The position numbers were made by a program, and so were the translations under genes. Of a stretch of 64,000 nt of DNA, positions 13,074 to 56,365 are shown in pieces. Source of the DNA: Candidatus Latescibacterota bacterium (lineage in GTDB: Bacteria; Latescibacterota; UBA2968; UBA8231). The stretch lies in contig OZ242318.1 in assembly GCA_965208105.1 (NCBI GenBank), positions 1,024,001-1,088,000 of the forward strand, read 5' to 3'. How positions within the stretch are numbered: position 1 is the stretch's first letter; every line of letters starts with the position of its first letter. The notes below the pieces were generated by a model, which was given only the letters and a program-made list of their open reading frames with translations, was not told where the DNA came from and made no database searches.

Positions 13074-13709
13074 CTATGGGGGATTATTCTCCATCCAATT
13101 GCCCATGAAGTCGAAAAGTTCAAGCGAGTAAGGATCAACCTTCGGCAAGTTCCTTGCCTGTAGAGCAATCTCGCTATGGGGCGGCTGTGGGTCGGCTGTC
13201 TGTATTTCTGATACGTACCCTGGAATCGCGGAGTTCAGCGCCAAGAAGAAGCGCTTTTGAGGTTGTCTGAGCCGAAGGTGCTTCTCGAATTTTCGCCTCC
13301 TTCTTGTCAGATCGTCCTCTTTCCTCGATCTCAGTTTCTTTTCGCTGGCGGAGAGCAAGAAATACCCGTCCGGAAATCCTATCGATTTTTCCGCCACTAA
13401 CTCTCTGAGCAAACCAAAATCTCGCTTCCAGGTTGCGGGACTTTCGTAGACCCAGTCATACCAGACCTTCAGGTGGTCTCCATCCAGGACTACCAAAGCG
13501 GATTTCTTGGAATGCTCCAAGGCGATCTTCCACCTGTCAACCGACCTCTCAATGAACCAATTGGAAAGCGCTTCTCCTTCTAGATCGGGCGGAATGGCAA
13601 ACAGTGGTGGAATTTCGTCGACAACATGTGCTTGGTGTCGTTCGGCCATCGCGTACGATGTTGTCGTTTTCCCGACAGCGCTTGGTCCCTCGATGCAAAT
13701 GATCGCCAC
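13074..13709 (-). CDS. P-loop nucleotide kinase-like protein (cassette)
   Basis: ICIEGPSAVGKTT Walker A and VVLDGD. Confidence 0.75.
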   Translation of the reverse strand: MAIICIEGPSAVGKTTTSYAMAERHQAHVVDEIPPLFAIPPDLEGEALSNWFIERSVDRWKIALEHSKKSALVVLDGDHLKVWYDWVYESPATWKRDFGLLRELVAEKSIGFPDGYFLLSASEKKLRSRKEDDLTRRRRKFEKHLRLRQPQKRFFLALNSAIPGYVSEIQTADPQPPHSEIALQARNLPKVDPYSLELFDFMGNWMENNPP

Positions 13710-13767
13710 TTATCACTCCGTCTCGAGTCAGGGTAGATTTTCTCCAGGGGTAATCAATTCCGATGTC

Positions 13768-13856
13768 GGCTGACGTCTCACGGTTTGCGAACCTGCGCGG
13801 CGGGTTGCCGAAGGCCAACGGCCAAACGGCGAGCGGCGTGAATTGCTGTGATATAC
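13768..13856 (-). repeat. attC site (GAT-type R'' end)
   Basis: ggctgac..cggtttgcgaacc..ggttgccgaaggccaa..tgtgatatac. Confidence 0.8.
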
Positions 13857-13896
13857 GACGTGGCCCTTTTCTCAACAAGCTGATAAATGTGGACGC

Positions 13897-14232
13897 TCAA
13901 CTTTCACCAAGTGCTCTCGGCTCAAATACGTCGAGGACCGCTGCTTCTGAGTGTGGTCGCAGGATAGTACGCTCAGCAAATTCCTCAGCGTCTGGGTAGC
14001 CGGTAGTCCGAACACGATTGGCCGCTTTCTCAAAATCATAGAGCGTGCACCTGAACTGAACATCAGAGTCTATCATGAGCCAATGTGCACCCCGTTCTCC
14101 GTAGGGCATTGGTCCGGACACCACATCGCCCCCGATCACGAAATGATCAACCTGCTCCGCGGCAACATCCTCTATCACAGATTCAAGAGCTGGTGCATTA
14201 CCATGGATGTCATAGATGGCTGCAATTCGCAT
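13897..14232 (-). pseudogene. Metallophosphoesterase with in-frame internal deletion (cassette)
   Basis: The N-terminal DIHGN and GGDVVSGP motifs join directly to the C-terminal MPYG..AHW..YDFE region. The GNxD, HG and GHTH motifs are missing. Confidence 0.7.
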
Positions 14233-14312
14233 GACAGGTCTCCTTAGCTGGAGCCATGAGTATTCGAAATTGAACAACCTTCTGATGTTTTCTGATTCCT
14301 CTTGTCCATGTC

Positions 14313-14455
14313 ATATATCGTTCTGCCGGTTTGCGAACCCCGAGCTTGTTGAGGGGTTGCCCAAGGCCAAAGCGGCTATTACTTCATCTTTTATCAGGGT
14401 AAGTCTCCCATCATGTCCTGCGGAGTGCAGATCTCCGAACACGGACGTGTTAGGC
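14313..14455 (-). repeat. Chimeric attC interrupted by a ~78-bp PIN-cassette fragment
   Basis: Left attC half at 14313-14370, insert 14370-14446 matching ~17601-17678, right attC end acggacgtgttaggc. Confidence 0.8.
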
Positions 14456-14463
14456 GGCGTTGG

Positions 14464-15306
14464 TCAACTCACGCCGCCCTTCAAAAGACAACGCAGTGCA
14501 GTAAGGCTCTCCAGAGCCTTCTCTCGGGGGCGGACCTCAATGCAGTAGTCGGCGATATCCGCCTCGCTTAGACGGGGCAAAAAATCCATGAAGTCTATAA
14601 ATCCCGTTCCAATTACTCGATGTTGTCGGGGTGGCTCAGACCAATAGTCGTGCAAATGAACCTGCCTCACCTGGCTCAGATGGTTCCAAAAGTACTTCTC
14701 CAACGTCTCATCTTTTGTTCCGTCTCGATCAAAGGTTTTCGCCAGATCCCAGCACAGAAAGAGCTCCCCTGCATCCACAAACGGTCCCAGTGTATCTAGA
14801 ATCATCTCGTCCAGTTTGTAGTTTTCGCATACGAGCAGAAACCGGCCACGTACCAATCGGGTGATATCGTGAAGACTCTGGGATAGCCTCTCCAGATAGG
14901 CCGACAAAGCCGCTTTCGGAAGAGCTTGCTCTGGAGTGGTATCCGTCTTCCAGCTTGGCAAGGAACCAAGGTGAATCGTCACCAGATTGGCGCCTATGTT
15001 TTCGGCAAACCGGAAGAGGGCGCTATAGTAGTCGAAGATACCCTGCCTCAGATAGCCGTTGGTTTCAAGCAGCGAAACGGTCTCGTCCGGCGCGTGCAAT
15101 GCAATGCTCATTTGATTCCGTTGGACGAAATCAAGTATCTCTGCGCACGCCTGCGCAGACACTCCTTCGTACGAGAATCTGGGAACTTCACACGCAAGCT
15201 GTATGCCTGTGAAACCGTTCGACCTGGCATACCGAAGGGCGTCCATGATAGAATCTTCGTAGACTGCATGATAACTAATGTTCTGCAAAATATTATCGCT
15301 CTTCAT
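14464..15306 (-). CDS. Sugar phosphate isomerase/epimerase, AP-endonuclease-2 TIM barrel (cassette)
   Basis: LHAP, VTIHLG, CEN, CWDLAK, VHLHD, HRVIGTGFIDF, CIEV. Confidence 0.85.
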   Translation of the reverse strand: MKSDNILQNISYHAVYEDSIMDALRYARSNGFTGIQLACEVPRFSYEGVSAQACAEILDFVQRNQMSIALHAPDETVSLLETNGYLRQGIFDYYSALFRFAENIGANLVTIHLGSLPSWKTDTTPEQALPKAALSAYLERLSQSLHDITRLVRGRFLLVCENYKLDEMILDTLGPFVDAGELFLCWDLAKTFDRDGTKDETLEKYFWNHLSQVRQVHLHDYWSEPPRQHRVIGTGFIDFMDFLPRLSEADIADYCIEVRPREKALESLTALRCLLKGGVS

Positions 15307-15340
15307 CGCGCCTCAGATCCAGATCTTGCTTGCCAATGTC

Positions 15341-15432
15341 GCCTAAGTTTTCACAATTCACGAAGCCGCGCGGAAGCGGGTTGCCGAAGGCCAACGGCCG
15401 AACGGCGCGCGGCGTGAATTCCTGTGTTACAG
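15341..15432 (-). repeat. attC site
   Basis: gcctaag..aattcacg..gggttgccgaaggccaa..cgtgaatt..gttacag. The core base at the left end is mutated. Confidence 0.8.
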
Positions 15433-15478
15433 GTTGGCGGCGCGCCCCCGTCACGGCGAAGCGCTCGCAAACCCACTT

Positions 15479-16513
15479 CTACTCCATGTTGCCCATGGCC
15501 TGACGGCGGCGGCGGTTAGCAAGTTCGCGTAAGTCCACAACCACATCAGTTTCATCCACAATCTCCTGTCCAATAAGCTCTTCAAGCACGTCTTCCAAGG
15601 TCACCACACCCTCCAATCCACCTAATTCATCAATCACGACAAACAAATGTTGCCGGAGTTCAAGAAACATGCGCAGAACTCGATCCAACGTCAGCGTCTC
15701 CAGCACGAAGTGCGCAGATCGCGCGAGACTCTGCAGGGAGACATTTTCGCGGTTCTCGGCAACTGCTGATAGAAGATCCTGACGGTGGACGATCCCAACA
15801 ACATCGTCAGCATCTTTATCATCTACTATCGGAATACGAGCATATGATGGCACACCCCTTTGCAGCACCTCATCTACTTTCTGCCGTGCTGGAAGGGAAT
15901 AAATGACCGTGCGCGGTGTCATGATTTCCTGAACTGTTTTCTCTTTCAACGATAGAATGTTCTGAACGGCCCGGCCTCCTTCTGAATCAATGGTACCCGC
16001 ACGTCGCCCCATCTGCACCAATGCTATGAGCTCCTCCGAAGAAACAACATGCTCAACCTTGCCACGAGATATTAGCCGTGTCATAAATTGGCACAGCCAG
16101 ATAAGCGGTGTTTGTGTCCAGATCAAAAGTTGGATGGGATATGCAATCCAGGACACAAGGTGACGGGCATAGACCACGCCAATCGTCTTTGGAACAATCT
16201 CAGAGAACATAAGAATCACGAGGGTAAATACCGCTGAAAAATGCGGCAACCACGGTTCGCCCAAAACATCAGCGGCTGCTGCTCCAGCAAGGGCGGCTCC
16301 AACCGTATGCGCAATTGTGTTAAGAGATAGGATACCCGCGATGGGCGCATCCACATTTTCTCTAAACTTTTTCATTAATCGGCCAGGAGCACTGCCAGAT
16401 TTCGCCAGCGATTCGACATGACCAAGGGGAGCCGAGTACAATGCCGCTTCAAAAAGTGAACACAAAAAAGAAAAGAAAACGGCAAAACTCACAAAGAATA
16501 TCAATTCAAACAT
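15479..16513 (-). CDS. CNNM/DUF21-CBS hemolysin-family transporter (cassette)
   Basis: SFLCSLFEAAL, ILSLNTIAHTVGA, SEIVPKT, IMTPRT, VIDELGG..GVVTLEDVLEELIG.EIVDE. Confidence 0.92.
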   Translation of the reverse strand: MFELIFFVSFAVFFSFLCSLFEAALYSAPLGHVESLAKSGSAPGRLMKKFRENVDAPIAGILSLNTIAHTVGAALAGAAAADVLGEPWLPHFSAVFTLVILMFSEIVPKTIGVVYARHLVSWIAYPIQLLIWTQTPLIWLCQFMTRLISRGKVEHVVSSEELIALVQMGRRAGTIDSEGGRAVQNILSLKEKTVQEIMTPRTVIYSLPARQKVDEVLQRGVPSYARIPIVDDKDADDVVGIVHRQDLLSAVAENRENVSLQSLARSAHFVLETLTLDRVLRMFLELRQHLFVVIDELGGLEGVVTLEDVLEELIGQEIVDETDVVVDLRELANRRRRQAMGNME

Positions 16514-16603
16514 CTGATTACCCCCCTTTGCTTAGAAAACCGCAATTTGCTTTTGTGCATGATTTGCCGGTGTGGGGTTGTGGGACAACCTTGCGCCGCT
16601 TTC

Positions 16604-16696
16604 CTGTAACGTCTTACCGATTGCCGAACTCGCCGAAGGCGAGTTGCCGACAGGCCAGGCCGCCAATGCGCCGTAGCGGCGAACGATTTGTTATAT
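16604..16696 (-). repeat. attC site
   Basis: ctgtaac..gaactcgccgaaggcgagttgccgacaggcca..gttatat. Confidence 0.85.
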
Positions 16697-16708
16697 GAAG
16701 TGGGGTCA

Positions 16709-17275
16709 TCACTTGCGTGCGGCCATTCGATCGAACGCACTCGGGCGGACACGATGTGTCCAAGCATCGATAACCGCTGCTGCGTTGGCTTCGACAGGTT
16801 GCGTGGAATCAACTTCCAGATCGTACTCGACGAAACTGTGAACTACCTGAAAGTCCGCTTTCGCCTCGCCAGATCGTCGGTCCCCTCTCTCGCGTTCCCG
16901 CCGCTCTAGCTCTGCAAGCGGACAGTGCACCCCGACAGCGAATACATCGCAATCAGAAAGAAGGCCCACCAGATCTGCCAGCCAAGCCTCGGTCTCGATT
17001 ATGTGGTCAACGATGAGGTTGTTTCCTGCCGCGGCCAAAACTGGAAGACATCGGTGAAACCCGTCGAATACGGCTGGTCGCATTTCTAGCCAGTTGAGTT
17101 CACGATTAAGTATGCGGGACCACGGCAGAGCATTGGAATCGCGCAGATGGTCAAATGAAATATGCCAGAAAGGCGCTTGTAGCGTCTGCTGGAGTTGACG
17201 TGCAAGCGTAGTTTTTCCAGCACTTGATGCGCCGTTGATGAGAATGATCTCGCCCCGGTCTCGATCGCTAGACAT
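16709..17275 (-). CDS. Chloramphenicol phosphotransferase-like (CPT) P-loop kinase (cassette)
   Basis: IILINGASSAGKTT, GNNLIVDHI, VGVHCPLAELERRERERGDR, YDLEVDS. Confidence 0.85.
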   Translation of the reverse strand: MSSDRDRGEIILINGASSAGKTTLARQLQQTLQAPFWHISFDHLRDSNALPWSRILNRELNWLEMRPAVFDGFHRCLPVLAAAGNNLIVDHIIETEAWLADLVGLLSDCDVFAVGVHCPLAELERRERERGDRRSGEAKADFQVVHSFVEYDLEVDSTQPVEANAAAVIDAWTHRVRPSAFDRMAARK

Positions 17276-17318
17276 ATACGCCAAGAGGACGGTTCAGTAG
17301 GTCTTCACACCCGATTTC

Positions 17319-17408
17319 ATATAACGTTGTGCCGGTTTGCGAACCCGCGAAGCGGGTTGCCGGAGGCCAAGGAGCGTTAGCGACGCAGCGCAAACCGTGC
17401 TGTTATGT
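17319..17408 (-). repeat. attC site
   Basis: atataac..cggtttgcg aacccgcgaagcgggtt gccggaggccaa..cgcaaaccg..gttatgt. Confidence 0.92.
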
Positions 17409-17435
17409 GCTTCAGGCTGACGCGGCGGAGTGGGG

Positions 17436-17627
17436 TTACGAAGCTTTGTGCTCTTTACTAACGGGCCGGCTCTCGCGCCTCTTGGAATGAGACCAGTCTA
17501 TAACCCCGTTGGCATATGCACGCTCTCTTTCGCGGAGCATTTCGCCAAGGCGCTTCACGTCAAAGCTGTGCTCTCGAGCAATATCCTCCTTGGTCTTCCA
17601 CAAGGCGGCTATTACTTCATCCTTCAT
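17436..17627 (-). CDS. Small putative antitoxin partner of the PIN toxin (cassette)
   Basis: 63 aa, MKDEVIAALWKTKEDIAREH.FD. The start overlaps the read-through stop of the toxin (TGATG). Confidence 0.65.
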   Translation of the reverse strand: MKDEVIAALWKTKEDIAREHSFDVKRLGEMLRERERAYANGVIDWSHSKRRESRPVSKEHKAS

Positions 17628-18103
17628 CAGGGTAAGTCTCCTATCATTTCCTGCGGAGTGCCGATCTCCGGACACGGATGCCCATGCTCAGTACAGAGTG
17701 CTCAAACCCGTGGCTTGAGCAGAGCATTGTCAATGTGCTTGAAGTTCCAGGTGAGAAGATAATCGACAGTGTGCACAACCGATAGGGCAATATGGAATGC
17801 GTCATCAGCGGCACTAATGGGTAGCGGACCAGGATGCACGAGCCTACCAGCAAACTCGATAACCTGATCAGACACGGCCAGTAATGGAATACCCTCAAGA
17901 TGCGCCATTCTGCGCTGTGCAGCCTCTGGATCGCCACGGTTGGCTTCCTCTAGCACCAAGGCTGAAGTGCAAAGGTCGAAGTCCTGGCGCTGGTGATTCC
18001 ACCACGACACCGTCACCTCCTGCCAGGCCGCCACCAACGCACTGGGCGATGGCCGCGCTGTCAGGTAACTGACGATCGATGTCTCGATGTAAAGCGACGG
18101 CAT
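17627..18103 (-). pseudogene. PIN-domain (VapC-like) toxin with premature TGA at 17702-17704
   Basis: LYIETSIVSYL..DAFHIA..YLLTWNFKHI. The frame continues past TGA as ALCTEHGHPCPEIGTPQEMIGDLP*. Confidence 0.8.
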
Positions 18104-18143
18104 GGGAATAAACCTGAGAATAGATCTGAATTCATCCTATTGC

Positions 18144-18231
18144 ACATAACGTTCTCGCGGGCTGCGAACCTGCCGCAGGCAGGTTTCCTGCGAAGGCCGA
18201 ATGGCCCGAGCCGTGGGTGCTCGTGTTAAGC
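18144..18231 (-). repeat. attC site
   Basis: acataac..gaacctgccgcaggcaggtt..gaaggcc..gtgttaagc. Confidence 0.85.
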
Positions 18232-18243
18232 GAAGCGGCAGGC

Positions 18244-19320
18244 TTACCAAGGGCCGATCTGTGCTCTAAATCTGGCCTCTTCCATCGGCGGACCCAGCCC
18301 GAGCATCGAGCATAACCTATCGTAGTGAGCCACGGCCCAACCTCTTCGCCAGTCAGGGAAGGCTTGTCCTTGCCAGTGGACTGATGAGCCAACGAGCTCG
18401 GCCCCCCATGTCAGTGAGGAGAGAGCCCAAGCGTGGTAATCAGCTGCCAGACGATGGAGTCGCTCCCAACAATCGTCTGGAAACGCGCGGTGGGTCTCAT
18501 ATCCATCCTGAAATGCACCGAAATATCGACGGTCCAGACCCAGAATAGAGGCATACAGAAGCGAAATCTCCAACGCGCCATCACAAATCTCAATTGGCCC
18601 GAAGTCAATGCACCCTGATAGACGAAAACCATCCGGCGTCCTGTCCAATATGAAGTGCTCTTCCCACGGTTCCTCACTTGCCAGTCCGGGCGGAAACAGC
18701 GGATCATCCGGCGGACGAGCCAGGTGTCTCTCAGCCCTTGAAAACAAACTCCTTACGTCGAGCTCCAGACTTTCTAGAATTAGACAAACTCTGTCCAGCT
18801 CATGCGCCACTCGCTCGCGACGCCGATCTAGGTGGTAGAGAGGGTCTGAGCGATGGTCATTGACCCTGGCGGATAGTTCAAGATGGTCGGCAGCAGCTAG
18901 AAGCGAACTCCCATCTGCCGTGTGATAACTCGCCATCCCCTCCCCAAGACCACAAAAGAGCTTCAGACGTTCAACTTCATCGACTTCCTGCCAGAGCAGA
19001 TCGAGGCGTTTTCCAGGACACTTTTCCGTAATGAGGTACGACGCGTCCAGCGACAGATCACGTTCGCACCAGGTAATAACCCTTGGCGTCGGAAAAGCTG
19101 GCTCTACCTCCAGGAGTCGATAGTCTTCCTCATCTTCCTTGAAGGCGAGAAACTGGAGAGCGTAGGTATCATCCAAATAGTAGATGACTTTCTCGTTCCC
19201 TCTCCCTTCAGATTCTATCTTGCTCGGATCTGGAATTGAGTGGCGAGCACAGATCTCGGTAATGTCCTCGCGAGTCAGACGCTCTCTAAAATCGTCCTCT
19301 GGCCGCCCTATGCGTTCCAT
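18244..19320 (-). CDS. APH/kinase-like fold protein (cassette)
   Basis: FPTPRVI..YLITEKCPGKRL and SGCIDFG. The HGD catalytic loop is not recognisable. Confidence 0.65.
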   Translation of the reverse strand: MERIGRPEDDFRERLTREDITEICARHSIPDPSKIESEGRGNEKVIYYLDDTYALQFLAFKEDEEDYRLLEVEPAFPTPRVITWCERDLSLDASYLITEKCPGKRLDLLWQEVDEVERLKLFCGLGEGMASYHTADGSSLLAAADHLELSARVNDHRSDPLYHLDRRRERVAHELDRVCLILESLELDVRSLFSRAERHLARPPDDPLFPPGLASEEPWEEHFILDRTPDGFRLSGCIDFGPIEICDGALEISLLYASILGLDRRYFGAFQDGYETHRAFPDDCWERLHRLAADYHAWALSSLTWGAELVGSSVHWQGQAFPDWRRGWAVAHYDRLCSMLGLGPPMEEARFRAQIGPW

Positions 19321-19350
19321 CGGCTGACATCCTCTCAAGCCTGCCGTTTC

Positions 19351-19454
19351 GCTTAACATTTACGCCGGTTTGCGAACGCCGAGCTGGCCGAGGCGTTGCC
19401 CGAAGGGCCAAGACGCCCGCAAGGGCGGCGCAGCGCAACACCGTGCTGTTACGC
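19351..19454 (-). repeat. attC site
   Basis: gcttaac..ccggtttgcgaacgcc..ggcgttgcccgaagggccaa..accgtgctgttacgc. Confidence 0.9.
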
Positions 19455-19481
19455 GCTGGTCTGTCTCAATCAATCTCGTGG

Positions 19482-20453
19482 TCAATCAAGCTCCTCGATG
19501 TTGCGTCTAATACAATCGAGTACGAGATCAATTCTGGAGTCGGGGAAAGATGCACTTCCCCACGCGTTGATGTAGAGAGACGGCGTTCCAAGACTGAAAA
19601 TATTGCGTGCTGCCGCGAACGCTGGGATTGCCTGCAATTCCCAATCTCTCAGCGGCCGAATCTCCTGGTACCCCTTGAGGAAGGCCTCCGCGTTCTCCTC
19701 GGGTGCCTTCCAGTACATGACCTCCGTGAAGTAGGTCGCGACATCATACACGCGCCAACCCAACCCGCAAAAATCGAAATCCAAAAAGCTCATTGCGCCG
19801 CTTGGGCTTACTTTCGTGTTTGACGCGCTCACGTCACCGTGCAGAAGCCCATAAAACGGCTTCTCCTGCTCCAGGCTGCAAATTCTGGGCTCAAGGATCG
19901 CGCAGACCTCCTTGAGGTAGGCGACGGACTCCGCCCGATGAGGTACTGCCTCCCGGAAAGCCTCAATGGGTCGTTGTACCATCATGTTGAAATCAATGCA
20001 CGGACGGTTGATCGCTGCCTTCATTGAATCGGCAGCCGAGTGTATCCTGGCGATTTGTGAGCCCAACTGCGCAACTGTCTCCACACTGGGTGTCCGGCTG
20101 AGATGATCCCCATGTATGTATGCGAACAATACGCCGTGACGCAGGCCTTCAGGCGCTTCGAGCGCAAGCATTCGGGCATCGTCTTTTGGCCGAATTGGTG
20201 GCCCAACAGACACACCCTCCCTATCAAGGTGTTCAATCAGATCGAGCTCAGACTCGATCTCGGCTGAATTTCGGCTGAGATGTTGATAAACACAGAGAAC
20301 GAAATCACCTTCGGAAGACCACACACGGTAGGTGTCACGAATTGTACCCTTGATCAACTGACAGTGCACCTGAGACAGACGAAATGCGTCCTCGATGATC
20401 TCAGAGAGGGCGTTCGTACATAGAAATGACTTACTGATCGGTAGCGGATTCAC
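19482..20453 (-). CDS. Phosphotransferase, type II homoserine kinase/APH family (cassette)
   Basis: LLHGDVSASN and FLDFDFCG..WRVYDVA. Confidence 0.85.
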   Translation of the reverse strand: MNPLPISKSFLCTNALSEIIEDAFRLSQVHCQLIKGTIRDTYRVWSSEGDFVLCVYQHLSRNSAEIESELDLIEHLDREGVSVGPPIRPKDDARMLALEAPEGLRHGVLFAYIHGDHLSRTPSVETVAQLGSQIARIHSAADSMKAAINRPCIDFNMMVQRPIEAFREAVPHRAESVAYLKEVCAILEPRICSLEQEKPFYGLLHGDVSASNTKVSPSGAMSFLDFDFCGLGWRVYDVATYFTEVMYWKAPEENAEAFLKGYQEIRPLRDWELQAIPAFAAARNIFSLGTPSLYINAWGSASFPDSRIDLVLDCIRRNIEELD

Positions 20454-20501
20454 TTCATCAATACTTCACCAATGTCTGATCAACGGCTGGAACGGACTTG
20501 C

Positions 20502-20600
20502 GCGTAACGTTTTCACCGGTTGCGAACGCCGAGCTTGTCGAGGCGTTTCCCGTAGGGACAAGGCGCGCACTCGCCGCAGCGCAACACCGTGCTGTTACCC
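20502..20600 (-). repeat. attC site
   Basis: gcgtaac..ggttgcgaacgccgagcttgtcgaggcgtt..cgcaacaccgtgctgttaccc. Confidence 0.9.
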
Positions 20601-20631
20601 GATGGCGGCATCAAGGAGAAAGCTACCGAAC

Positions 20632-21174
20632 TCAAACACCTGGCCGCCCAAACTCAACCGAGGCCGTATCAGTCAGCTCGATCTCGTCACCCAGAGCGTG
20701 TTCTGCAACACGAGACACAACAGAAGCTGAAATATCTTCGAAAGGATACGTGGCGTGAGCATCACGAATAAGCACAACTTCCAGGCTCCGGGTCAAGGCC
20801 CCTCGAATCGTTGCACTGACACACATCTCGGAGAGCAGACCGGCTACCGCAATACGGTTCACACCATTGCGTGTGAGAATTTCTATTAGATCAGTGCCGG
20901 CGAATCCGTCGTCCCCTGTTTTGCGCAACACCAACTCCTCCGGGTTTAGCGCTAACTTCGGATGGATGAACCACCCAGGCGTTCCGGGCTCGTCAAGAGT
21001 ACCCGGTGGACCGTCGTTCTGTAGATGGACCACAAGAGTCCCAGCAGATCTTGCGGCGGCCAATAATGCGACGAGGTGCTCTAGAACCACGGCAGAGTCA
21101 GGGACTGCTCGTTCTCCTTCCAACAATCCTTGCTGCGCATCAACTATGAGTAGGGCTGTGATTGATTTTTTCAT
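20632..21174 (-). CDS. Isochorismatase family cysteine hydrolase (cassette)
   Basis: ALLIVDAQ, RKTGDDGF, AGLLSEMCV, DAHAT. Confidence 0.9.
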   Translation of the reverse strand: MKKSITALLIVDAQQGLLEGERAVPDSAVVLEHLVALLAAARSAGTLVVHLQNDGPPGTLDEPGTPGWFIHPKLALNPEELVLRKTGDDGFAGTDLIEILTRNGVNRIAVAGLLSEMCVSATIRGALTRSLEVVLIRDAHATYPFEDISASVVSRVAEHALGDEIELTDTASVEFGRPGV

Positions 21175-21253
21175 GCAAGTCTACCATTCACTGGCCTGGT
21201 CCACCTCCATGAGAAGTATGTCATTTGCAGGCTTTCTCGATCATGCCGCTTTC

Positions 21254-21334
21254 GGGTAACGTTTTCGCCGTGCCCGAACCGCGTAGCGGTTGCGCGAAGG
21301 GCGAAGCCCGAAGCCGGGCACGGACGTGTTATAG
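21254..21334 (-). repeat. attC site
   Basis: gggtaac..cgtgcccg aaccgcgtagcggtt gcgcgaagggcgaa..cgggcacg..gttatag. Confidence 0.9.
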
Positions 21335-21380
21335 GATGTGCCAGACGGGGGTAAAGGGGAAACCCTTTCTCCGACACATG

Positions 21381-21944
21381 TCATGCTTCAAGCGACATCC
21401 AATGCCTTCGGCAACTGAACGCCAGTTCATAGAGTGCAGCGAAATCCTGATCGTCATCGGAGAATAGTTCTGCAGCTTTGCTATAAGTGACGGTCCGGAC
21501 TTCAATGATGGAGCTGTCACGATCAGAATCTGACGGAGAGCCAACCCGATCTGCATCTGCGCACGAAACAACTCTCACATGAATGGGGTGGGGAAAATTA
21601 GGTAGCCTGGGTTGGGGTTCTCTTGATGTACAATGGTACATGCCCATCGGATAAACATTGCTCAAGGCTGCACCCGTTTCTTCCATGACCTCTCGATGCG
21701 CAGCCTGCAGCCAGTCCTCTCCAAGTTCCAAGGTGCCCCCAGGCAACACCCACCTACCATTCTCGCGCATGGTCACCAGGCACTCGTTCTCCGAGACAAA
21801 CGGAATTACATATGACGAGCCGCAGCACGAAGCTACGATTTCGGAATCGAAGTTGACGAAATCGATTCCCTCTCCCCTACGACTCTGTAACGCCGGAAAA
21901 TCTCCGGCCAATCTGTCGAAATCGGCCTCAGCCAGAAACTTCAC
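21381..21944 (-). CDS. NUDIX hydrolase (cassette)
   Basis: Nudix box GGTLELGEDWLQAAHREVMEETG. Confidence 0.9.
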   Translation of the reverse strand: MKFLAEADFDRLAGDFPALQSRRGEGIDFVNFDSEIVASCCGSSYVIPFVSENECLVTMRENGRWVLPGGTLELGEDWLQAAHREVMEETGAALSNVYPMGMYHCTSREPQPRLPNFPHPIHVRVVSCADADRVGSPSDSDRDSSIIEVRTVTYSKAAELFSDDDQDFAALYELAFSCRRHWMSLEA

Positions 21945-21967
21945 ACCATCTCCTCATCTGGCATTTC

Positions 21968-22051
21968 CTATAACGTTATGCCGGTTGCCGAACTCGCGAA
22001 TGCGGTTGCGCGAAGGGCGAACGCCCGGAGCCGGGCACGGACGTGTTATGT
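21968..22051 (-). repeat. attC site
   Basis: ctataac..gaactcgcgaatgcggttgcgcgaagggcgaa..gggcacggacgtgttatgt. Confidence 0.88.
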
Positions 22052-22080
22052 GTTTTGTGCCCTGCGGTGGGGTGGGTGGG

Positions 22081-22356
22081 CTACTTGAGGGTCAGTTCCA
22101 AACGTCGACCAAGCGCGTGTGTCACCTTGCGCAAAGTCGACAGCTTGATGTCCTCGGCGTGATTCTCCATACGCGATATTGCCGTCTTTTTGGTTCCAAT
22201 GCGCTCGGCAAGTTCATCCTGGGTCAAGCCCGCGGCTTCTCGGGCTTGCCGAAGTAGGACTCCAATCTCGAAATCTCGATAGCCCTCCTCAAATCCTTCG
22301 GCAAAACGAGGATCCGTCTTCTTCCTGCGCGAAATGTATTTCTCCACATCACTCAT
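22081..22356 (-). CDS. higA: HigA-like XRE HTH antitoxin (cassette)
   Basis: LRQAREAAGLTQDELAERIGTKKTAISRMEN. Lies directly downstream of the RelE-like toxin. Confidence 0.85.
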   Translation of the reverse strand: MSDVEKYISRRKKTDPRFAEGFEEGYRDFEIGVLLRQAREAAGLTQDELAERIGTKKTAISRMENHAEDIKLSTLRKVTHALGRRLELTLK

Positions 22357-22716
22357 GACGATGCTCCTCTCTTGCGGCCTAGATATTCTAGCCGATAGCG
22401 CTCAGCTCGACGAATTTCACCTCGGTCGGTCTTAGCGGTCTTCTTGGAATACCCGTGTGTGACAACGAGGTCGCCGCCGTACACAAAAAATGAAAAGAAC
22501 CGATAGGCTCCGCTGGACGTTTTCACCCGGCACTCCCAGATGTCGTCGGTGCCTACTAGCTTCTTGAGATATTGTCTCGGAACGCGGGTCAATTCGTTCG
22601 ATCAAACGAAAGACCCACAATACCTTCTGAGCATCACTCCCGTCGAGCCTGTCGAGAAACTCCCGAACAGGACATCTGCTGTCCTTCGTACGGTAGAATT
22701 CAATGGATCTGCCCAC
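22353..22716 (-). pseudogene. higB: HigB/RelE (gp49-like) toxin, frameshifted near 22587
   Basis: The N-half (IEFYRTKDSRCPVREFLD) and C-half (YLKKL..IWECRV..YRFF..THGYSKKTAKT) are in different frames. Confidence 0.8.
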
Positions 22717-22722
22717 GCATTT

Positions 22723-22751
22723 ATGTTAACACGCACGTTAACCTAAGTCAA
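22723..22751 (-). promoter_or_regulatory. TA cassette promoter with palindromic operator
   Basis: Minus strand TTGACT-17-TAACAT overlapping GTTAAC-N6-GTTAAC. Confidence 0.7.
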
Positions 22752-22764
22752 CAGGGCACATTGC

Positions 22765-23040
22765 ACATAACGCTTTGCCGGTTTGCGAACCATTGGTTCG
22801 CATAACGGCCGCCAAGTCCTGCTTATCTGAAACGAAGGTACCTATTGCGGAGAGCAGTCGCAACTAAAGTCCTCAAGACCGTATTTTCTCTTAACTCCTT
22901 GATATAATTTGAAATAAACCGATTTTCAACAATTCCGCTCCGCGCGGCGGCGAGCGATCCATCAGGGACCCTCCTTTTCCCTTGCGAAGGTTCTCTGCGA
23001 ATTGCATAGTACCAGTATCGGTCCCTTATGTTCCCGTTCA
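22765..23040 (-). promoter_or_regulatory. Conserved array leader copy 1: attI-like site, Pc-like promoter, IHF-like box, divergent promoter
   Basis: Homologous to 56087-56365. Minus TTGCGA-17-TACCTT (22863-22835), minus TATCAAGGAGTTA (22904-22892), plus TTGCGA-17-CATAGT (22982-23010). Confidence 0.75.
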
Positions 23041-23112: not shown

Positions 23113-25224
23113 GTGAAATCCTGGTACAGCCAAGTCCTGGAGCAAGGTGATGCTGCCCTGCGGGCCCAGGTAGCCAGAGCCTTGCTGAAGGGGCGCAAGC
23201 CCCGGAAGCCCAGGAAGCCGGACCACTTCGGCCGCATCGTCGAATACCTGCGCAGGGGTCACCACTGCTGCGGGGTGGTGCAGGGGGACCCGAACAAGTC
23301 GAGGTCTTTGTGGGTTCTGAATCAGGAGGGCAAGGAGGCCTGGGTGAGCCATCGCAAGCTCATCGACATGTCGAGCGAAAAAATCGGGCTGCGGCAGCGC
23401 CATGAAATCGTCCGCGCCCTGCGCCAGGTCAACCGGCGCCGGGAGAGGATAAAGGGGGAGCTGAACCTGCGGCCCCTGTGGGAATTGGCCGCCGAGGAGC
23501 CGGACCGAAAATGGGCCCTGAGCGAACTGGCCGAGCTCTACTTCGGGGAAGACCAGGACAGCGACCGCCTGACCGCCCTTGCCCGGCTCCTGGGAGAGGG
23601 GAAGTTTTTCTCCCGGCAGGAGCAGCACTATCTGTCATTGCCGGCAGGCAAAGTGGAAGAGCGCGGCCGGGCATCGGAGCAGCGGCACCGCGATCGAGAC
23701 CGATTGGAGGAAGCAGCCCTTTGGCTGCGGCAGGTGGCGGATGGCAAAGAGGGCGCCCGGCCGGAGGGGGCCGCGGAGGCCATTGCCGTGTTGGAGCAGG
23801 CAGCCCTGTTCGAGGGAGAAAGTCCAAGGGCAAAAGAGGCGGCCAGGTTGATGAAACAGGCGCATCTGCACGGTCCGCTGGCGGCCTTCGATGTCCTGGT
23901 CAAACTGGGACACTGGGACGTGAACGAGAATCTCGAGCTGCTGCGCTGCGATGTGCCCGTGGACTTTTCGACAAAGGCCCTGGCCGAAGCGGCGGAGCTC
24001 CGCGGGCTGCCTGCGGCTGGACGCGGGCGGCGCTGGTGGGGCCGGCGGGTCTACGGTTTTTCGCGGGATGGGAAGGTTTGTGACAGGGCCTTCAGCGTGC
24101 GTCGGACCCTCTTCGGATACAAGCTGGGCCTGCACTTCGCCGTCCCCGCCTTGCTGGTGCAACCAGAGGGCCGGGTGGAGGTGGAGGCCATGGAACGCGG
24201 GGCTTCCATATACCTGCCCGATGGTTCGATCCCCATGTTGCCGCCTTCCCTGGCCGCTGCCGCTGGGCTGACTCCAGGGGAGCGCCGGCCCGCCCTGACC
24301 GTGGAGGTGCGCCTCGATCTCCGCCGCCAGATCAAGGGGTTTGCCCTCCGCCTGTGCCGGGTCAGGCCGCGGATGGTCTTGCGCATGGAGGAGGCAGAGG
24401 CCCGGCTGGCCGCCGATCCGCACCTGCGCTGGTTGTACGATCTGGCCCGGACCCGGCGGCAGACGCGGCGACAGAGGGGGGATTTGATTCTGGCCGCGCC
24501 CGAACTGAACATGGATTTCAGGGAAGGGGCGGTCCGGATCCAGCGCCTGGAGGCGAACCAGGCCGGGCCGCTGATCTGCGAGGAGCTGAAGTTGCTCGCC
24601 CAGGAGCTGGCCGGGGCGTTTTGCGCTCGAAATGGCATCCCATCGGTCTACCGGGTCGAGCCTGTTTCCCCCGGAATCTCGGTGGAGGGAGAGGAGTACG
24701 ATGCCGCCCGGGTACACGCAGGGAAGAAGCAGATGTCCCGAGGAAGGCTGCAGACCGAACCCCCGGCGCACGGCCCAGGGAGGGTGTGCATCGGCCATCC
24801 CCTCGATGGCTACGAGGATCTGCTGATGCAGCGACAACTGCTGGGCTTTATTGCCGACGGCACCCTACGGTACGTCCGGGAGGATTTGGCCCGGGGCCTG
24901 AGCGCCACCGCCCTGGCGCGCGAGACGGCAGCAAAGGTCATGGGCTCGGCCCGGCACTACTGGCAGCTGAAGTACCTGGAGGAAAAGGCGGGAGAAGAGG
25001 TGGAAGGGGTTGTGCTGGAACGCGCCGGGGTTGGAATCCTGGTCGAACTGGACTGTTGCCTGTTGAAGGTCTTTGTGCCCGGGAGACGCGAGACCTGGGC
25101 CGCTCCGGGAGATCGAATTCGGGCAATGGTAGGCCTGGTTTCGGCGCGCCGGGATTTGATTCGTCTCGAGCATCCCCGGCCTCTTCAGGCCGGTGCAAAA
25201 GATTACTCCTCCGTTTCTCTTTAG
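23113..25224 (+). CDS. RNB-domain (RNase II family) protein with degenerate catalytic motifs
   Basis: EAMERGASIYLPDGSIPMLP and GERRPALTV motifs plus a C-terminal S1-like domain. The Asp cluster and SPIRRY motifs are altered. Confidence 0.8.
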   Translation: MKSWYSQVLEQGDAALRAQVARALLKGRKPRKPRKPDHFGRIVEYLRRGHHCCGVVQGDPNKSRSLWVLNQEGKEAWVSHRKLIDMSSEKIGLRQRHEIVRALRQVNRRRERIKGELNLRPLWELAAEEPDRKWALSELAELYFGEDQDSDRLTALARLLGEGKFFSRQEQHYLSLPAGKVEERGRASEQRHRDRDRLEEAALWLRQVADGKEGARPEGAAEAIAVLEQAALFEGESPRAKEAARLMKQAHLHGPLAAFDVLVKLGHWDVNENLELLRCDVPVDFSTKALAEAAELRGLPAAGRGRRWWGRRVYGFSRDGKVCDRAFSVRRTLFGYKLGLHFAVPALLVQPEGRVEVEAMERGASIYLPDGSIPMLPPSLAAAAGLTPGERRPALTVEVRLDLRRQIKGFALRLCRVRPRMVLRMEEAEARLAADPHLRWLYDLARTRRQTRRQRGDLILAAPELNMDFREGAVRIQRLEANQAGPLICEELKLLAQELAGAFCARNGIPSVYRVEPVSPGISVEGEEYDAARVHAGKKQMSRGRLQTEPPAHGPGRVCIGHPLDGYEDLLMQRQLLGFIADGTLRYVREDLARGLSATALARETAAKVMGSARHYWQLKYLEEKAGEEVEGVVLERAGVGILVELDCCLLKVFVPGRRETWAAPGDRIRAMVGLVSARRDLIRLEHPRPLQAGAKDYSSVSL

Positions 25225-52447: not shown

Positions 52448-52537
52448 GCATATCGTTTTCACGGTTTACGAACCCACGAAGTGGGTTGCCGCAGGCCAAG
52501 GGGCGAATGCCCCGCAGCGTAAATGGATGTGATATAT
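52448..52537 (-). repeat. attC site (GAT-type at both ends)
   Basis: gcatatc..ggtttacg aacccacgaagtgggtt gccgcaggccaa ggggcgaatgcccc..cgtaaa..gatatat. Confidence 0.88.
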
Positions 52538-52604
52538 GAAATGGGACTCTTCATTACCTGTACCAGAGCTCTACTGCTGGAGCTGCCGGGGAGGGTGCCG
52601 AGCA

Positions 52605-53261
52605 TCAGTCGTGGTGGCGTTTGTAATAATGTCTGATCTTTGGGTCGCGGAAGCGAACGACCGTGTTGTGGCCCCAAACGGCCAAGCCAACTGCACCGCG
52701 CGACTCCCCAGGCAGCGTCAACCGATTGACCAATACACCGTTCACGTAGCTGGTCACTGAGCGATCACGGACCTTGAGGACAATGTCATATTCGCGACCA
52801 GGCTCCATAACGAAATCAACGACATCGAGTTTGACATCCTCACGAGTTTCCTCGTTCCGACGGACGACGACCATGGTCTTCCAACCCGTCAGGTATGTCA
52901 GGAAATGCGACGAAACACCGTCGTCGGAGATTCCAAATACGAGTTGCGGACCGGACCCCTTCTCAATGGTGGCCTGCACCTTGAATTCATAGGCAGCCCA
53001 GGTCCCATCTCCCTGGACAAGCCGCCCGCGGCTTGCCTGGCCCGTATCGGCAATGATGGCGTCGCCCTCGCGACGCCATACGGAAGGGGTGAAAGGGCCT
53101 TCACTGGCATGCCATCCGGCCAAGCCCTCACCCTCTACCATTGACTCCCACGGCTTGCCGATATCCGCTCGACCGTAGTCGTTCTCAAAGGAAGGAGTTC
53201 CGACAGCGGCACTCACTGTAGTTAGTAGGCCCAGGTAGATTGCGTAGTGAATTTTCTCCAT
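52605..53261 (-). CDS. Secreted DUF1080-like domain protein (cassette)
   Basis: Signal peptide, WESMVEGEGLAGW..YEFKVQ..VRFRDPKIR. Paralog of 31695-32243. Confidence 0.7.
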   Translation of the reverse strand: MEKIHYAIYLGLLTTVSAAVGTPSFENDYGRADIGKPWESMVEGEGLAGWHASEGPFTPSVWRREGDAIIADTGQASRGRLVQGDGTWAAYEFKVQATIEKGSGPQLVFGISDDGVSSHFLTYLTGWKTMVVVRRNEETREDVKLDVVDFVMEPGREYDIVLKVRDRSVTSYVNGVLVNRLTLPGESRGAVGLAVWGHNTVVRFRDPKIRHYYKRHHD

Positions 53262-53301
53262 TACATGGTCTCCGGTCGGTGATTCCGGTTCTTCCCATTT
53301 C

Positions 53302-53398
53302 ATATATCGTTCCGCCGGTTTGCAAACCCCGAGCTTGGCGAGGGGTTGCCGCAGGCCAAGGCGACGTAGCCGCCGAAGCACAAACCGTGCTGTTATAC
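53302..53398 (-). repeat. attC site
   Basis: atatatc..ccggtttgcaaaccccgagcttggcgaggggttgccgcaggccaa..caaaccgtgctgttatac. Confidence 0.9.
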
Positions 53399-53411
53399 GT
53401 CGTGATATTCA

Positions 53412-53879
53412 TTACTCTGTTGAATGCAACTCGTCTCTGATCCTACCACCAATCTCATTCATCTGATCTTCACTGACACTTTCCTCCTGAGAAACACCCA
53501 GATAAGCAAATACTCTAGTGCTTCGCCGGTCGGCCGGTTGATTAGCCATTCGAGGCACAATATGGAAGTGTACATGCGGATGATCCTTGGCCTCGGCAAA
53601 CTGGATCACATATGTTTTCACGCATCCGACTACAGCCTTAAGAGACAAGGAAACACGCCGAATCAAGGGCCCCAATTCTGCGGCTTCCTGCTCAGTGAGC
53701 TCATCAAGCGATTCGATGTGTCGTTGCAGAACCAACACCAGCCATCCGGGCAATGAGGTATCGAACGCATGCGCAACATCCCAGAACCTGGTCTGGTAAA
53801 TGCTGTCGTAAAGTGGCGCCTTCCCCAGCCTTCTTCGTGCAGTCAATTCGCACGTCTTGCACGTGTCACTACCGTTCAT
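53412..53879 (-). CDS. HIT family hydrolase (cassette)
   Basis: CKTC near the N-terminus and the HPHVHFHIVPR histidine triad. Confidence 0.9.
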   Translation of the reverse strand: MNGSDTCKTCELTARRRLGKAPLYDSIYQTRFWDVAHAFDTSLPGWLVLVLQRHIESLDELTEQEAAELGPLIRRVSLSLKAVVGCVKTYVIQFAEAKDHPHVHFHIVPRMANQPADRRSTRVFAYLGVSQEESVSEDQMNEIGGRIRDELHSTE

Positions 53880-53907
53880 GTCCGACCTCTCATTGCATCT
53901 CCATGTC

Positions 53908-53996
53908 GTGTAACGTTCTGCCGGTTTGCGAACCTCGATGTGGTTGCCGAAGGCCAAGGGGCGGCAGCGCCTCAACGCAACACCGTGATTTTAGCG
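53908..53996 (-). repeat. attC site
   Basis: gtgtaac..ccggtttgcgaacc..ggttgccgaaggccaa..cgcaacaccg..tttagcg. The core G is mutated. Confidence 0.85.
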
Positions 53997-54006
53997 GAAG
54001 TTTCAC

Positions 54007-54222
54007 TCAATTCAATAGATCGCGAAATTGCTCAACGGAAAGACCCGCGTCTCGAACAATTCCGCCCATTGTGAACGCATTGACCGGATTGCTTCGGGGA
54101 ATAGTCAAGATCCGGGTACCGTCACTCATGACGATGTGTTTACCCTGGCGAATTATCCGAAATCCAGCCTTTTCCAAGGCCCTTACGGCCCGCAGGTGAT
54201 TGACCTCTGGAATCTTGGGCAT
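54007..54222 (-). CDS. hicA: HicA toxin (cassette)
   Basis: ALEKAGFRIIRQGKHIVM..LTIPR..IVRDAGLS. Confidence 0.85.
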   Translation of the reverse strand: MPKIPEVNHLRAVRALEKAGFRIIRQGKHIVMSDGTRILTIPRSNPVNAFTMGGIVRDAGLSVEQFRDLLN

Positions 54223-54223
54223 C

Positions 54224-54421
54224 CTAAAGCGTCAGCTCCACCTCTTTGACTTGAGCGTCTCCTAGTAGTTCGTCGACCGCTGCAAGGTATTCGCGTATAG
54301 CCGCTTCGATGTTTGCAAGCGCTTCCGCCTCGGATGCACCTTGAGACCAACAACCGGGAAGCCCAGGAACAGAAACACTCCATCCCTCATCAGATTCGAG
54401 CAACGCGACTTTGTACTTCAT
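54224..54421 (-). CDS. hicB: Short HicB antitoxin (cassette)
   Basis: VSVPGLPGCWSQG.SEAEALANIEAAIREYL. Confidence 0.88.
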   Translation of the reverse strand: MKYKVALLESDEGWSVSVPGLPGCWSQGASEAEALANIEAAIREYLAAVDELLGDAQVKEVELTL

Positions 54422-54542
54422 TTCGACACCTTCCTTACTTGCGGCAATAGAGCACCATTTGCCAAATGAGGATCATAATTCAATAAATTCTTGCGAACTT
54501 CCGTGCATCACGGCGATGTAAGAATTTTCCACGTCCTATTTC

Positions 54543-54637
54543 CGCTAACGTTTCGCCGGTTTGCGAACCTGGCGCAGCCAGGTTGCTGAAAGCCAAGCCG
54601 CCTGAAGGGCGGCGTAGCGAAAACCGGTGTGTTATGT
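54543..54637 (-). repeat. attC site
   Basis: cgctaac..ccggtttgcg aacctggcgcagccaggtt..gccgcctgaagggcggc..aaaccgg..gttatgt. Confidence 0.92.
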
Positions 54638-54644
54638 GCCGTGC

Positions 54645-55493
54645 CTACCCAACGTACGCTCGCCCAGATGATGTTTTCGAATGATCGGATTCCAGGGAAA
54701 TTTGAGTGATGGTGTCGTGGGCGCGTCCCGTGCGGTCATGGTGCACATACACGATGTCGTCAATGACGATTCGCCGATTACCCGGATACTTGCAGGTCAA
54801 GTCCCCGCCCCGGAAATACTGCCCATCATAGCGCCGGAAGAAGACGGTCCTTCCTCCTTCTTCAACGAAGGCTTCCACGAGCTCTCCACCGTTTGGTGAG
54901 GACAAGCCGGGTATGGGATCCAAGATACGAATACAACAAAACCTGTTGTCGCCGATAGTCACATCGTAGGTACCAGCACCGAGACCTTGCGCATCGGTCG
55001 TCTTGTAGGCGCCATCACTCAGGCGTTCGTACCGCCCATCGTCAACTATTCGACGATTCATAGAACCGCCCCAGTTGGCTTCGAAGGTCCTGTCGCCCAG
55101 CAATTCGAACACGCGTCTCCCACGCAAAGTCTTGACCACTCCAACCCATCGGGCACCCTGGTCGTCCAACAGTGCGTACATGTACCCGGGATTGAATTCT
55201 GTTGGCCAGTCCTTCCGATTTGCATACTCTTGCAATCGAAGCTCGACACAATCTGTGTCACGGAGCCTTGCTGGACCCACGGACACGATTTCGGTAACCC
55301 CTGTTAGCTGGAGCGTATCCGATTCATACGCGGCCCACATGCAGTGTTCCCCCAGCCTAGGTACGGCAAACCACCACTGTAGCTCCGGGCAGCCGACTTC
55401 GTCTACTCTCTCGCAACTTTCCTCGATCGTGACCTCAGGCCGCGTCAATGGAAACCCACGACTCGTCGCGTTGCTGGCGTTCTCAGGATTCAT
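54645..55493 (-). CDS. Hypothetical protein (cassette)
   Basis: 282-aa ORF filling the space between two attC sites. RBS-like GGAG upstream. No family recognised. Confidence 0.7.
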   Translation of the reverse strand: MNPENASNATSRGFPLTRPEVTIEESCERVDEVGCPELQWWFAVPRLGEHCMWAAYESDTLQLTGVTEIVSVGPARLRDTDCVELRLQEYANRKDWPTEFNPGYMYALLDDQGARWVGVVKTLRGRRVFELLGDRTFEANWGGSMNRRIVDDGRYERLSDGAYKTTDAQGLGAGTYDVTIGDNRFCCIRILDPIPGLSSPNGGELVEAFVEEGGRTVFFRRYDGQYFRGGDLTCKYPGNRRIVIDDIVYVHHDRTGRAHDTITQISLESDHSKTSSGRAYVG

Positions 55494-55549
55494 GATGGGA
55501 TCTCCGATATCGCCTTGGGAGGTCGATGTCTGTGTGCTTCTGGCATGCC

Positions 55550-55646
55550 GCCTAACGTTTCGCCGGTTTGCGAACCCCGAGCTTGGCGAGGGGGTTGCCG
55601 CAAGCCAAGGCGCGCAAGCGCCGAAGCGCAAACCGTGCTGTTAGAT
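55550..55646 (-). repeat. attC site
   Basis: gcctaac..cggtttgcgaaccccgagcttggcgagggggttgccgcaagccaa..cgcaaaccgtgctgttagat. Confidence 0.92.
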
Positions 55647-55670
55647 GAAGCTCTCTCAGAAGTCAGATCT

Positions 55671-56042: not shown

Positions 56043-56086
56043 TTAATCTCCCAGCCATGTTGAAGTGAGGCAACGCTGCTCCGAGT

Positions 56087-56365
56087 TTCATCTAACTGCC
56101 TATATGCGAACCATGGTTTCGCATAATGGCCTCCAAGTGCTGCTAATCTGAAACGAAGGTACCTATTGTCGAGAGCGGTCGCAACTAACGCCCACAATAC
56201 TTTAAATTCGCGTAACTCCTTTATATTTAAATAGATAAATCGATTCTTCATCGATTCTGTGCGACGACAACCGGTTCATCAGGAATCCTGCCGGACCCTT
56301 GCGTACTGTCCCAGCGAATTACATAGTACCGGGTACCGGTATCGGCGCCGAATTTTCATTCATTG
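56087..56365 (-). promoter_or_regulatory. Conserved array leader copy 2: attI-like site, Pc-like promoter, IHF-like box, divergent promoter
   Basis: Core GTTAGAT (56096-56090), palindrome TATGCGAA-ccatggt-TTCGCATA, minus TTGCGA-17-TACCTT (56184-56156), minus TATAAAGGAGTTA (56225-56213), plus TTGCGT-17-CATAGT (56299-56327). Confidence 0.78.

Follow-up and report, generated by a model that had tools for sequence, protein, structure and literature searches.

Paralogous attI-type leaders head several cassette arrays in a Candidatus Latescibacterota chromosome and may be served in trans by one IntI-like recombinase

The DNA described here is a stretch of 64,000 nucleotides (nt), hereafter the window, from the 4.85-Mb genome of a Candidatus Latescibacterota bacterium (assembly GCA_965208105.1, contig OZ242318.1, positions 1,024,001 to 1,088,000 of the forward strand), and it carries two integron-type cassette arrays, A and B, each of which begins with a copy of the same conserved non-coding leader (coordinates in Table 1). 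The attC sites were called in nhmmer with a lineage-specific profile, seeded with nine sites of the window and iterated three times, rather than with the IntegronFinder covariance model, and extrahelical bases were not scored. Genome-wide, 83 attC-like sites were found; the 17 that lie in the window, at a median start-to-start spacing of 987 nt, comprise ten in array A, five in array B and two degenerate strays. As is expected of integron-type attC sites, they are imperfect palindromes of 60-140 nt with a GTTRRRY end, and their bottom strands give folds in which an unpaired spacer separates the R stem from the L stem, with a variable tip beyond. One small minus-strand open reading frame (ORF) lies between attC sites, as in gene cassettes, and the ORFs belong to unrelated Pfam families, which in array A are NUDIX, isochorismatase, two APH-family kinases, a CPT-like kinase, CNNM-CBS, AP_endonuc_2 (xylose-isomerase-like TIM barrel), Metallophos (metallophosphoesterase) and a helix-turn-helix (HTH) protein. 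A preliminary description of the window had counted ten attC sites and about eleven cassettes in array A; all ten sites are found and the cassettes between them are single-gene units, whereas the supposed eleventh is a terminal ORF on whose distal side no attC was found with the nhmmer profile. The ORF pair of the first cassette suggests a toxin-antitoxin-like arrangement. Cassettes 16709-17284, 18244-19359 and 19482-20453 encode CPT-like or APH-family phosphotransferases, named here by family only, and a 78-nt segment occurs twice in array A (14368-14445 and 17601-17678, 91% identity), each copy adjoining a different attC site; it might represent either a cassette end common to both or a small ORF.

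No tyrosine recombinase is encoded in the window (genome 1024001-1088000), as had been stated at the outset: all matches to the integron integrase profile TIGR02249 and all tblastn matches fall outside it. Having at least two attC sites each, and neither a neighbouring integron integrase nor a recognisable pseudogene of one, arrays A and B are clusters of attC sites lacking an integron integrase (CALINs), as this term is defined in the sections of Cury et al. 2016 (PMC4889954) drawn on here; with no integrase gene nearby they are not complete integrons in the IntegronFinder definition. An Rfam search of the window gave no family at gathering score.

The preliminary description had also recognised a conserved head of about 270 bp, homologous between 22763-23040 and 56088-56365, at the start of both arrays. 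The homology is confirmed (80% mean column identity between 22700-23100 and 56020-56420, with a conserved part of about 265 columns), but the block is composite: a true leader of about 175 nt, defined by a covariance model of five copies, is joined to a separate, outward-facing, promoter-like dispersed repeat of about 90 nt. Read in the direction of the array, the leader consists of a distal module (AATCG.T.TAT ... CAA.GAGTTAYG.GAA), the invariant GTTGCGAC, 13 variable nt, the invariant AGGTACCTT, then CGTTTCAGATAAG, an inverted repeat, 9-13 nt and a GTTA core. The GTT core proposed at the first cassette is present in both copies, and the proposed palindrome is this inverted repeat. Among the five paralogous leaders similarity is lost directly past the GTTA core. 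An alignment of 38 copies from 11 genomes, 9 linked to a recombinase gene and 29 at other loci (satellites), shows that the inverted repeat covaries, one position pair being G-C in 11 and C-G in 15 among 36 copies, and its right arm, GGTTCGCA, resembles the L' side of attC sites of the same genome. The consensus of the 29 satellite copies alone (70-86% overall identity) retains the same blocks as the 9 linked copies, and conservation is motif-specific. Chance is excluded as an explanation by covariance-model E-values of 1e-34 to 1e-41 in the five copies. The string shared across the copies is CAA.GAGTTAYG, and the box resembling an integration host factor site, once listed as a conserved element, is exact in copy A only and is not conserved. 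Short-form leaders (model positions ~80-180) occur, which shows that loss of the distal module is possible. Two other identities of the leader were rejected: a protein-coding sequence (ORF 22823-23041, minus strand), by indels between copies that are not multiples of three, and a miniature attC at its end, by the lack of an R'' partner for the GTTA core upstream.

At an E-value of 1 or less, the leader model has eight matches in the genome. Five are strong and all on the minus strand, at 1.047 (A), 1.080 (B), 2.061 (C), 2.751 (D) and 4.494 Mb (E), and each of the five stands at the head of an array; the arrays have 10, 5, 38, 11 and 7 attC matches, respectively. One of them, leader C, adjoins a divergently transcribed gene for an IntI-like recombinase, so that the genome-wide check called for in the preliminary description bore it out on both points. 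The remaining matches are a weaker full-length copy at 3581318 with a single attC match 9 kb off, a short form (model positions 76-180) inside array E, directly past the 5' half of an attC, and an eighth, weak match. Array C holds cassette-sized paralogues of 96-99.5% identity. An insertion sequence of 1162 nt, present in at least nine copies at 99.5% identity or more, has entered cassettes twice (array C, 2041413-2042574; array D, 2749056-2750217). Replication-orientation bias is known in large chromosomal integrons; judged from cumulative GC skew, with its minimum at ~2.96 Mb and its maximum at ~0.38 Mb, arrays A-D (1.04-2.75 Mb, minus) run in the direction of replication and array E (4.49 Mb, minus) runs against it.

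The recombinase at locus C has the integron integrase TIGR02249 as its top NCBIfam family, with 234.9 bits against a cut-off of 265, and its best solved match, by sequence (E 3.9e-47) and also by fold, is VchIntIA (PDB 2a3v); the fold comparison used a predicted model with a predicted local distance difference test (pLDDT) score of 75. The catalytic residues R-K-H-R-H-Y (R147, K172, H237, R240, H263, Y272) are invariant in the alignment of the family. In a tree of 18 rows, whose outgroups sit on long branches, its clade stands apart from canonical IntI (100/100 support) and from Xer; the tree does not separate a sister-to-IntI, a nested and an Xer-closer order. The protein is an IntI-like recombinase of Xer-like length and not a canonical integron integrase. 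No other copy or remnant of it was found by tblastn in the genome, and none beside leaders A, B, D and E. None of 80 distant recombinase loci (33-55% identity), among the matches listed, has a leader or attC match with the lineage-specific profiles, a result that covers these profiles and is silent on other attC types.

The pattern of leader, array and recombinase is repeated in relatives. When 61 genomes, the present one included, were scanned with the leader model, 12 proved to carry it in 1-10 copies each (10 in the congener G001, 5 in G035 and G056, 4 in G026, and 3 in G010, G016, G030 and G032), counts that are not independent because the genomes are kin; one leader-bearing genome belongs to a different bacterial family. 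In G001 all ten leaders are followed by co-oriented attC sites, as are 16 of 25 leader loci of the other relatives, for which 1.5 kb was fetched, and at none was an attC in the opposite orientation seen. A recombinase homologue was found in 8 of the 10 leader-bearing relatives searched, and in all eight the best match adjoins just one of the leaders, divergently and at a gap of 34-305 nt. Gene and leader remain neighbours in two bacterial families, even where the proteins are no more than 72-76% identical.

Cassettes themselves mark the GTT core as a junction. The first cassette of array B is also that of array C (genome 2060508-2061050), with an ORF body 100% identical behind leaders that are 68-86% identical, and the similarity ends at the ACG↓TTA (arrow, boundary) of the cassette's own attC. 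A cassette common to arrays C and D (98.5% identity) is bounded by ACG↓TTA on both sides, and one G001 leader has as its first cassette a counterpart, with 96% identity, of a cassette from the middle of array C. One G001 satellite is the orthologue of satellite E, the match taking in 1.4 kb upstream of the leader (87% identity over 1579 nt). Within the leader the two have an identity of 0.74-0.80, directly past the core one of ~0.3, and no stretch of 200 nt or more is common to the two arrays. This pair is without any recombinase remnant, has been retained in two species and carries completely different cassettes. At locus C, the recombinase-plus-leader unit is the sole stretch common to both species. 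Locus A is present in metagenomes of other studies at ~93-95% identity, one contig having the same first cassette. Contigs of two other-study sets join leader position 22794 to 22423, a deletion of 370 nt (22424-22793) that removes the core and the first ORF; its ends share the microhomology GGT(T)CG, and one contig has long alignment sides. Joints from 21264 to 21980, which skip one cassette (715 nt), were discounted, their 21-nt sides lying inside repeated attC sequence.

Leader similarity thus ends at GTTA and cassette-exact sharing begins there, as expected on comparative evidence of an attI-type site, and these junctions at the GTT core argue that leaders without a recombinase have acted as insertion sites. 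The best-supported explanation is a lineage-specific family of chromosomal integrons in which each chromosome has several attI-type platforms, with the leader at the head of their arrays. Each leader would unite an insertion site of attI type with a conserved promoter-like block that faces the cassettes. A single IntI-like recombinase without the I2 helix would act, or have acted, in trans on all platforms. It would insert circular cassettes at any leader, at the G↓TT core, and would excise or reshuffle them at the attC sites of every array, and transcription of the leader-proximal cassettes would start from the GTTGCGAC ... GGTACCTT block upstream. The trans-served, multi-platform reading is well supported by the comparisons made here, although not proven, and we consider it probable. 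The proposal of satellite platforms with attI and a cassette promoter (Pc), loaded in trans, is accordingly kept in outline by the recurrent loci and the core junctions, but it is weakened by a recombinase that is non-canonical and interrupted by an in-frame stop and by a poor match of the putative Pc to consensus.

Several points weigh against this reading, the first of them in the recombinase. Residues 179-238 of the 2a3v chain correspond to only 18 residues of the protein, the I2 insertion being missing, and the predicted model has no helix between H180-193 and H211-225; the additional domain of ~35 residues near patch III, with the I2 helix, by which IntI is recognised, is thus not found in it. 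Canonical IntIs of sister genera have an insertion of ~41 residues with AL.RKYP that the whole clade lacks. Close homologues (74-98% identity) are intact at 293-314 residues and distant ones differ only by an N-terminal extension, so the missing insertion is a family trait. The literature presents this insertion as the innovation from which integron integrases arose; in the parts of PMC7790495 relevant here, the shift of these enzymes towards single-strand recombination is ascribed to the gain of I2, and I2 is treated as the device recognising folded attC, which puts recombination of attC by this recombinase in doubt. The ORF also has one in-frame TAA in the present genome, at a position where a metagenomic homologue with 98% identity has a sense codon. 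Because of this stop the recombinase is probably inactive here; at present trans loading is probably not ongoing, which would leave arrays A and B frozen.

The remaining points concern the arrays, the promoter and the sampling. No attC was seen within 1.5 kb at 9 of the 25 leader loci of the other relatives, and some attC clusters have no leader (4 sites at 4606265-4613999, 2 at 286684-287609, and the strays of the window). The cassette-facing TTGCGA-17-TACCTT promoter of the preliminary description does coincide with two invariant blocks, but the conserved GTTGCGAC ... GGTACCTT block agrees with the sigma-70 consensus at 7 of 12 positions and was uncalled by a promoter scanner, so that a putative Pc is suggested by the conservation and position of the block. 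The kinship of the genomes lowers the weight of every count taken across them.

The strongest rival holds that A and B are relics, the remains of complete duplicate integrons whose recombinase was deleted or replaced and whose leaders are decaying without a present role, the shared cassettes having spread by segmental duplication, by homologous recombination between attC or leader repeats, or by gene conversion. Facts that count against the trans-served reading are at home here. Next to a satellite leader, G001 retains a recombinase remnant of residues 1-64 (3761038-3761229) and G032 one of residues 212-298, and an intact-looking linked recombinase is seen in 2 of 9 cases (G001 and G056), the rest having stops, a frame break or truncations. 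The B/C cassette is graded in identity (ORF 100%, attC 88-92%, first 100 nt 92-98%), which gene conversion or an older duplication would also fit. On its distal side array B is bordered by DNA with 95-97% identity to sequence just past the recombinase-linked array of G001, and on its upstream side by a flank that matches that of a G001 satellite; heads and arrays have thus been rearranged or reassorted. Leader D, finally, has in common with C a further ~35 nt from upstream of the recombinase gene; a coding remnant at D was ruled out, the D/C similarity stopping ~35 nt before the start codon. From the N-terminal 64 codons in G001 and the C-terminal remnant in G032 we infer that duplication of entire platforms gave rise to at least some of the satellites, which would then have lost the recombinase gene and kept the leader. 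Against mere decay stand the motif conservation and covariation that persist in the 29 satellite copies of 11 genomes, the remnant-free orthologous satellite with different cassettes in two species and a break at the core, and the shared segments that are exactly one cassette long and core-bounded, and we therefore regard the relic explanation as unlikely. Less probable still is a leader that serves as a regulatory or expression module only (promoter, 5' leader hairpin or protein-binding site) beside an Xer-like recombinase with another job, the cassettes having been moved by a canonical IntI since lost or on another replicon or donor: the missing integron integrase domain, a small tree in which the recombinase falls apart from canonical IntI, the occurrence of canonical IntI genes in sister genera of the same family, and an inverted repeat that could equally be an operator or an RNA hairpin speak for it, and against it canonical IntI (above the TIGR02249 cut-off in 11 of the 61 genomes) and leader (in 12) occur together in none of the 61, recombinase and leader have stayed adjacent over the protein divergence and the two families given above, and similarity ends precisely at the GTT that is the cassette boundary, as expected of a crossover point and not just of a promoter.

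Beyond the trans-served reading, a bolder one may be advanced tentatively: that this is a distinct integron class, whose recombinase never had or has lost the I2 helix and serves several dispersed attI platforms per chromosome. If true, cassette capture would not strictly need the IntI-specific domain, and attC sites might be recognised through their sequence, which is strongly conserved, possibly in double-stranded form. A layout of one integrase with many docking sites would in that case be a genome architecture that is maintained, as opposed to one in decay, and the clade might represent either a living intermediate between Xer and IntI or a reversal along that path.

The outward promoter-like module that adjoins leaders A and B belongs to neither. 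The divergent promoter had been taken as part of the leader; it is instead a dispersed repeat of ~90-110 nt with eight copies in the genome, five of them within 4.338-4.366 Mb and others including 794006 and 802857, and with at least 13 matches in G001, and it is missing from leaders C, D and E. Elsewhere it reads TTGACA-17-CATAGT, which is near consensus, with a short palindrome after it, and the copies sit upstream of different genes. The 30-kb region richest in copies (4338036-4366904, 5-6 copies) may be another modular gene island. For the gene divergent from leader A, which is not a recombinase, no counterpart was found in G001 by DNA search; just 3' of it an element of ~166 nt (25388-25553), with ~20 matches in G001 at 89-92% identity, looks like a repetitive extragenic palindromic (REP) or miniature inverted-repeat transposable element (MITE) repeat. 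The attC-like sites between 29780 and 31611 are a decayed array fragment without a leader. Just past the distal end of array A lies a PF00144 beta-lactamase-fold gene (11608-12861; family name only), around which is a 103-nt direct repeat (10552-10654 and 12363-12465, 89% identity, 1.8 kb apart). A second direct repeat, of ~220 nt (39706-39927 and 43841-44063, 85-89% identity, 4.1 kb apart), flanks plus-strand ORFs at 40112-43822.

Table 1. Positions of the cassette arrays, leaders and neighbouring features (window numbering, except the last row, which has genome positions)
Feature	Position	Strand	Remarks
Leader A	22763..22944	-	covariance model E 1.1e-39
Leader A, GTT core GTTATGT	22771-22765	-	
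Leader A, inverted repeat	22802-22784	-	TGCGAACC-AAT-GGTTCGCA
Leader A, TTGCGA-17-TACCTT	22863-22835	-	
Leader A, invariant block AGGTACCTT	22835-22843	-	
Leader A, invariant block GTTGCGAC	22857-22864	-	
Leader A, distal module	within 22763..22944	-	contains GAGTTAAG
Leader B	56088..56263	-	covariance model E 1.5e-39
Leader B, GTT core GTTAGAT	56096-56090	-	
Array A	13773..22048	-	10 attC sites between single-gene cassettes (nhmmer)
Array A, attC sites 1-5	13773-13853, 14315-14374, 15347-15429, 16607-16693, 17321-17405	-	
Array A, attC sites 6-10	18146-18228, 19354-19451, 20505-20597, 21257-21331, 21970-22048	-	
Array A, first cassette	22049..22771	-	small ORF 22432-22716 (no Pfam match), then HTH_3 ORF 22081-22356
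Terminal ORF beyond last array A attC	13074..13709	-	211 aa, no Pfam match
Array B	52451..55643	-	5 attC: 52451-52534, 53304-53395, 53911-53993, 54546-54634, 55553-55643
Array B, first cassette	55553..56096	-	pyrophosphatase-like ORF 55671-56042 (Pfam) and its own attC
Degenerate attC-like sites	29780-29867, 31533-31611	-	weaker look-alike at 28311-28352
Promoter-like module, leader A side	22944..23040	+	TTGCGA-17-CATAGT; faces the RNase II-family gene; dispersed repeat, not of the leader family
Promoter-like module, leader B side	56253..56340	+	upstream of GNAT gene 56382-56813
Gene divergent from leader A	23113..25224	+	RNB (RNase II family) with HTH_RNase_II domain
Recombinase ORF, locus C (genome)	2061252-2062190		divergent from leader C (2061042-2061219); 34 nt gap

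Clusters of attC sites without an integrase are common and are usually written off as debris. The sections of PMC4889954 used above give integrase loss, rearrangement, insertion sequence activity and secondary-site insertion as causes of CALINs; in them attI is sought only by exact match to class 1-3 sites, and an integrase call needs the IntI C-terminal signature. Tools with that requirement would miss the integrase of this lineage and label all its arrays CALIN. Those parts of a 2025 preprint on Xanthomonas (10.1101/2025.06.18.660453) that bear on CALINs place them at conserved loci, mobilisable in trans, and report most Xanthomonas integron integrases as inactivated. Like CALINs, arrays A and B have at least two attC sites without a nearby integrase, in a genome that also has an integrase-linked array; unlike them, the arrays described here start with a paralogous conserved attI-type leader, present in 1-10 copies per genome and across genera. 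In the literature searched, which took in few subscription journals and no supplements, neither published paralogous attI-type leaders heading CALINs nor published cassette arrays tied to an I2-less recombinase were found. Cassette turnover at the heads, as the comparative junctions suggest, would make such arrays working, or recently working, extra platforms of one system, and the idea of CALINs served in trans becomes directly testable with defined substrates.

The class 1 attI1 site has two direct-repeat integrase sites and an inverted simple site that ends at GTT. The leader resembles it in a crossover-type GTT at the first-cassette junction, an inverted repeat near the core and upstream GTT-containing boxes (GAGTTAYG, GTTGCGAC and ATTATGCGAAC) that are candidate integrase sites; it differs in having no sequence similarity to attI1 and an inverted repeat wholly 5' of the core. 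VchIntIA (2a3v) is the best match of the recombinase in sequence and fold; the recombinase has TIGR02249 as its top family and has the catalytic residues, but it is without the I2 insertion and its clade is separate in the tree; if it is active on these sites, it bears on the evolution of single-strand attC recombination. With the sedentary chromosomal integrons (the Vibrio superintegron, Xanthomonas ilvD) the system has in common a large array (locus C, 38 attC), species-homogeneous attC sites, a divergent recombinase beside attI, frequent integrase pseudogenes, paralogous cassettes within arrays and a toxin-antitoxin-like cassette. It differs from them in that several platforms per chromosome share one leader family, and in a recombinase that lacks the IntI insertion and scores under the NCBIfam integron-integrase cut-off.

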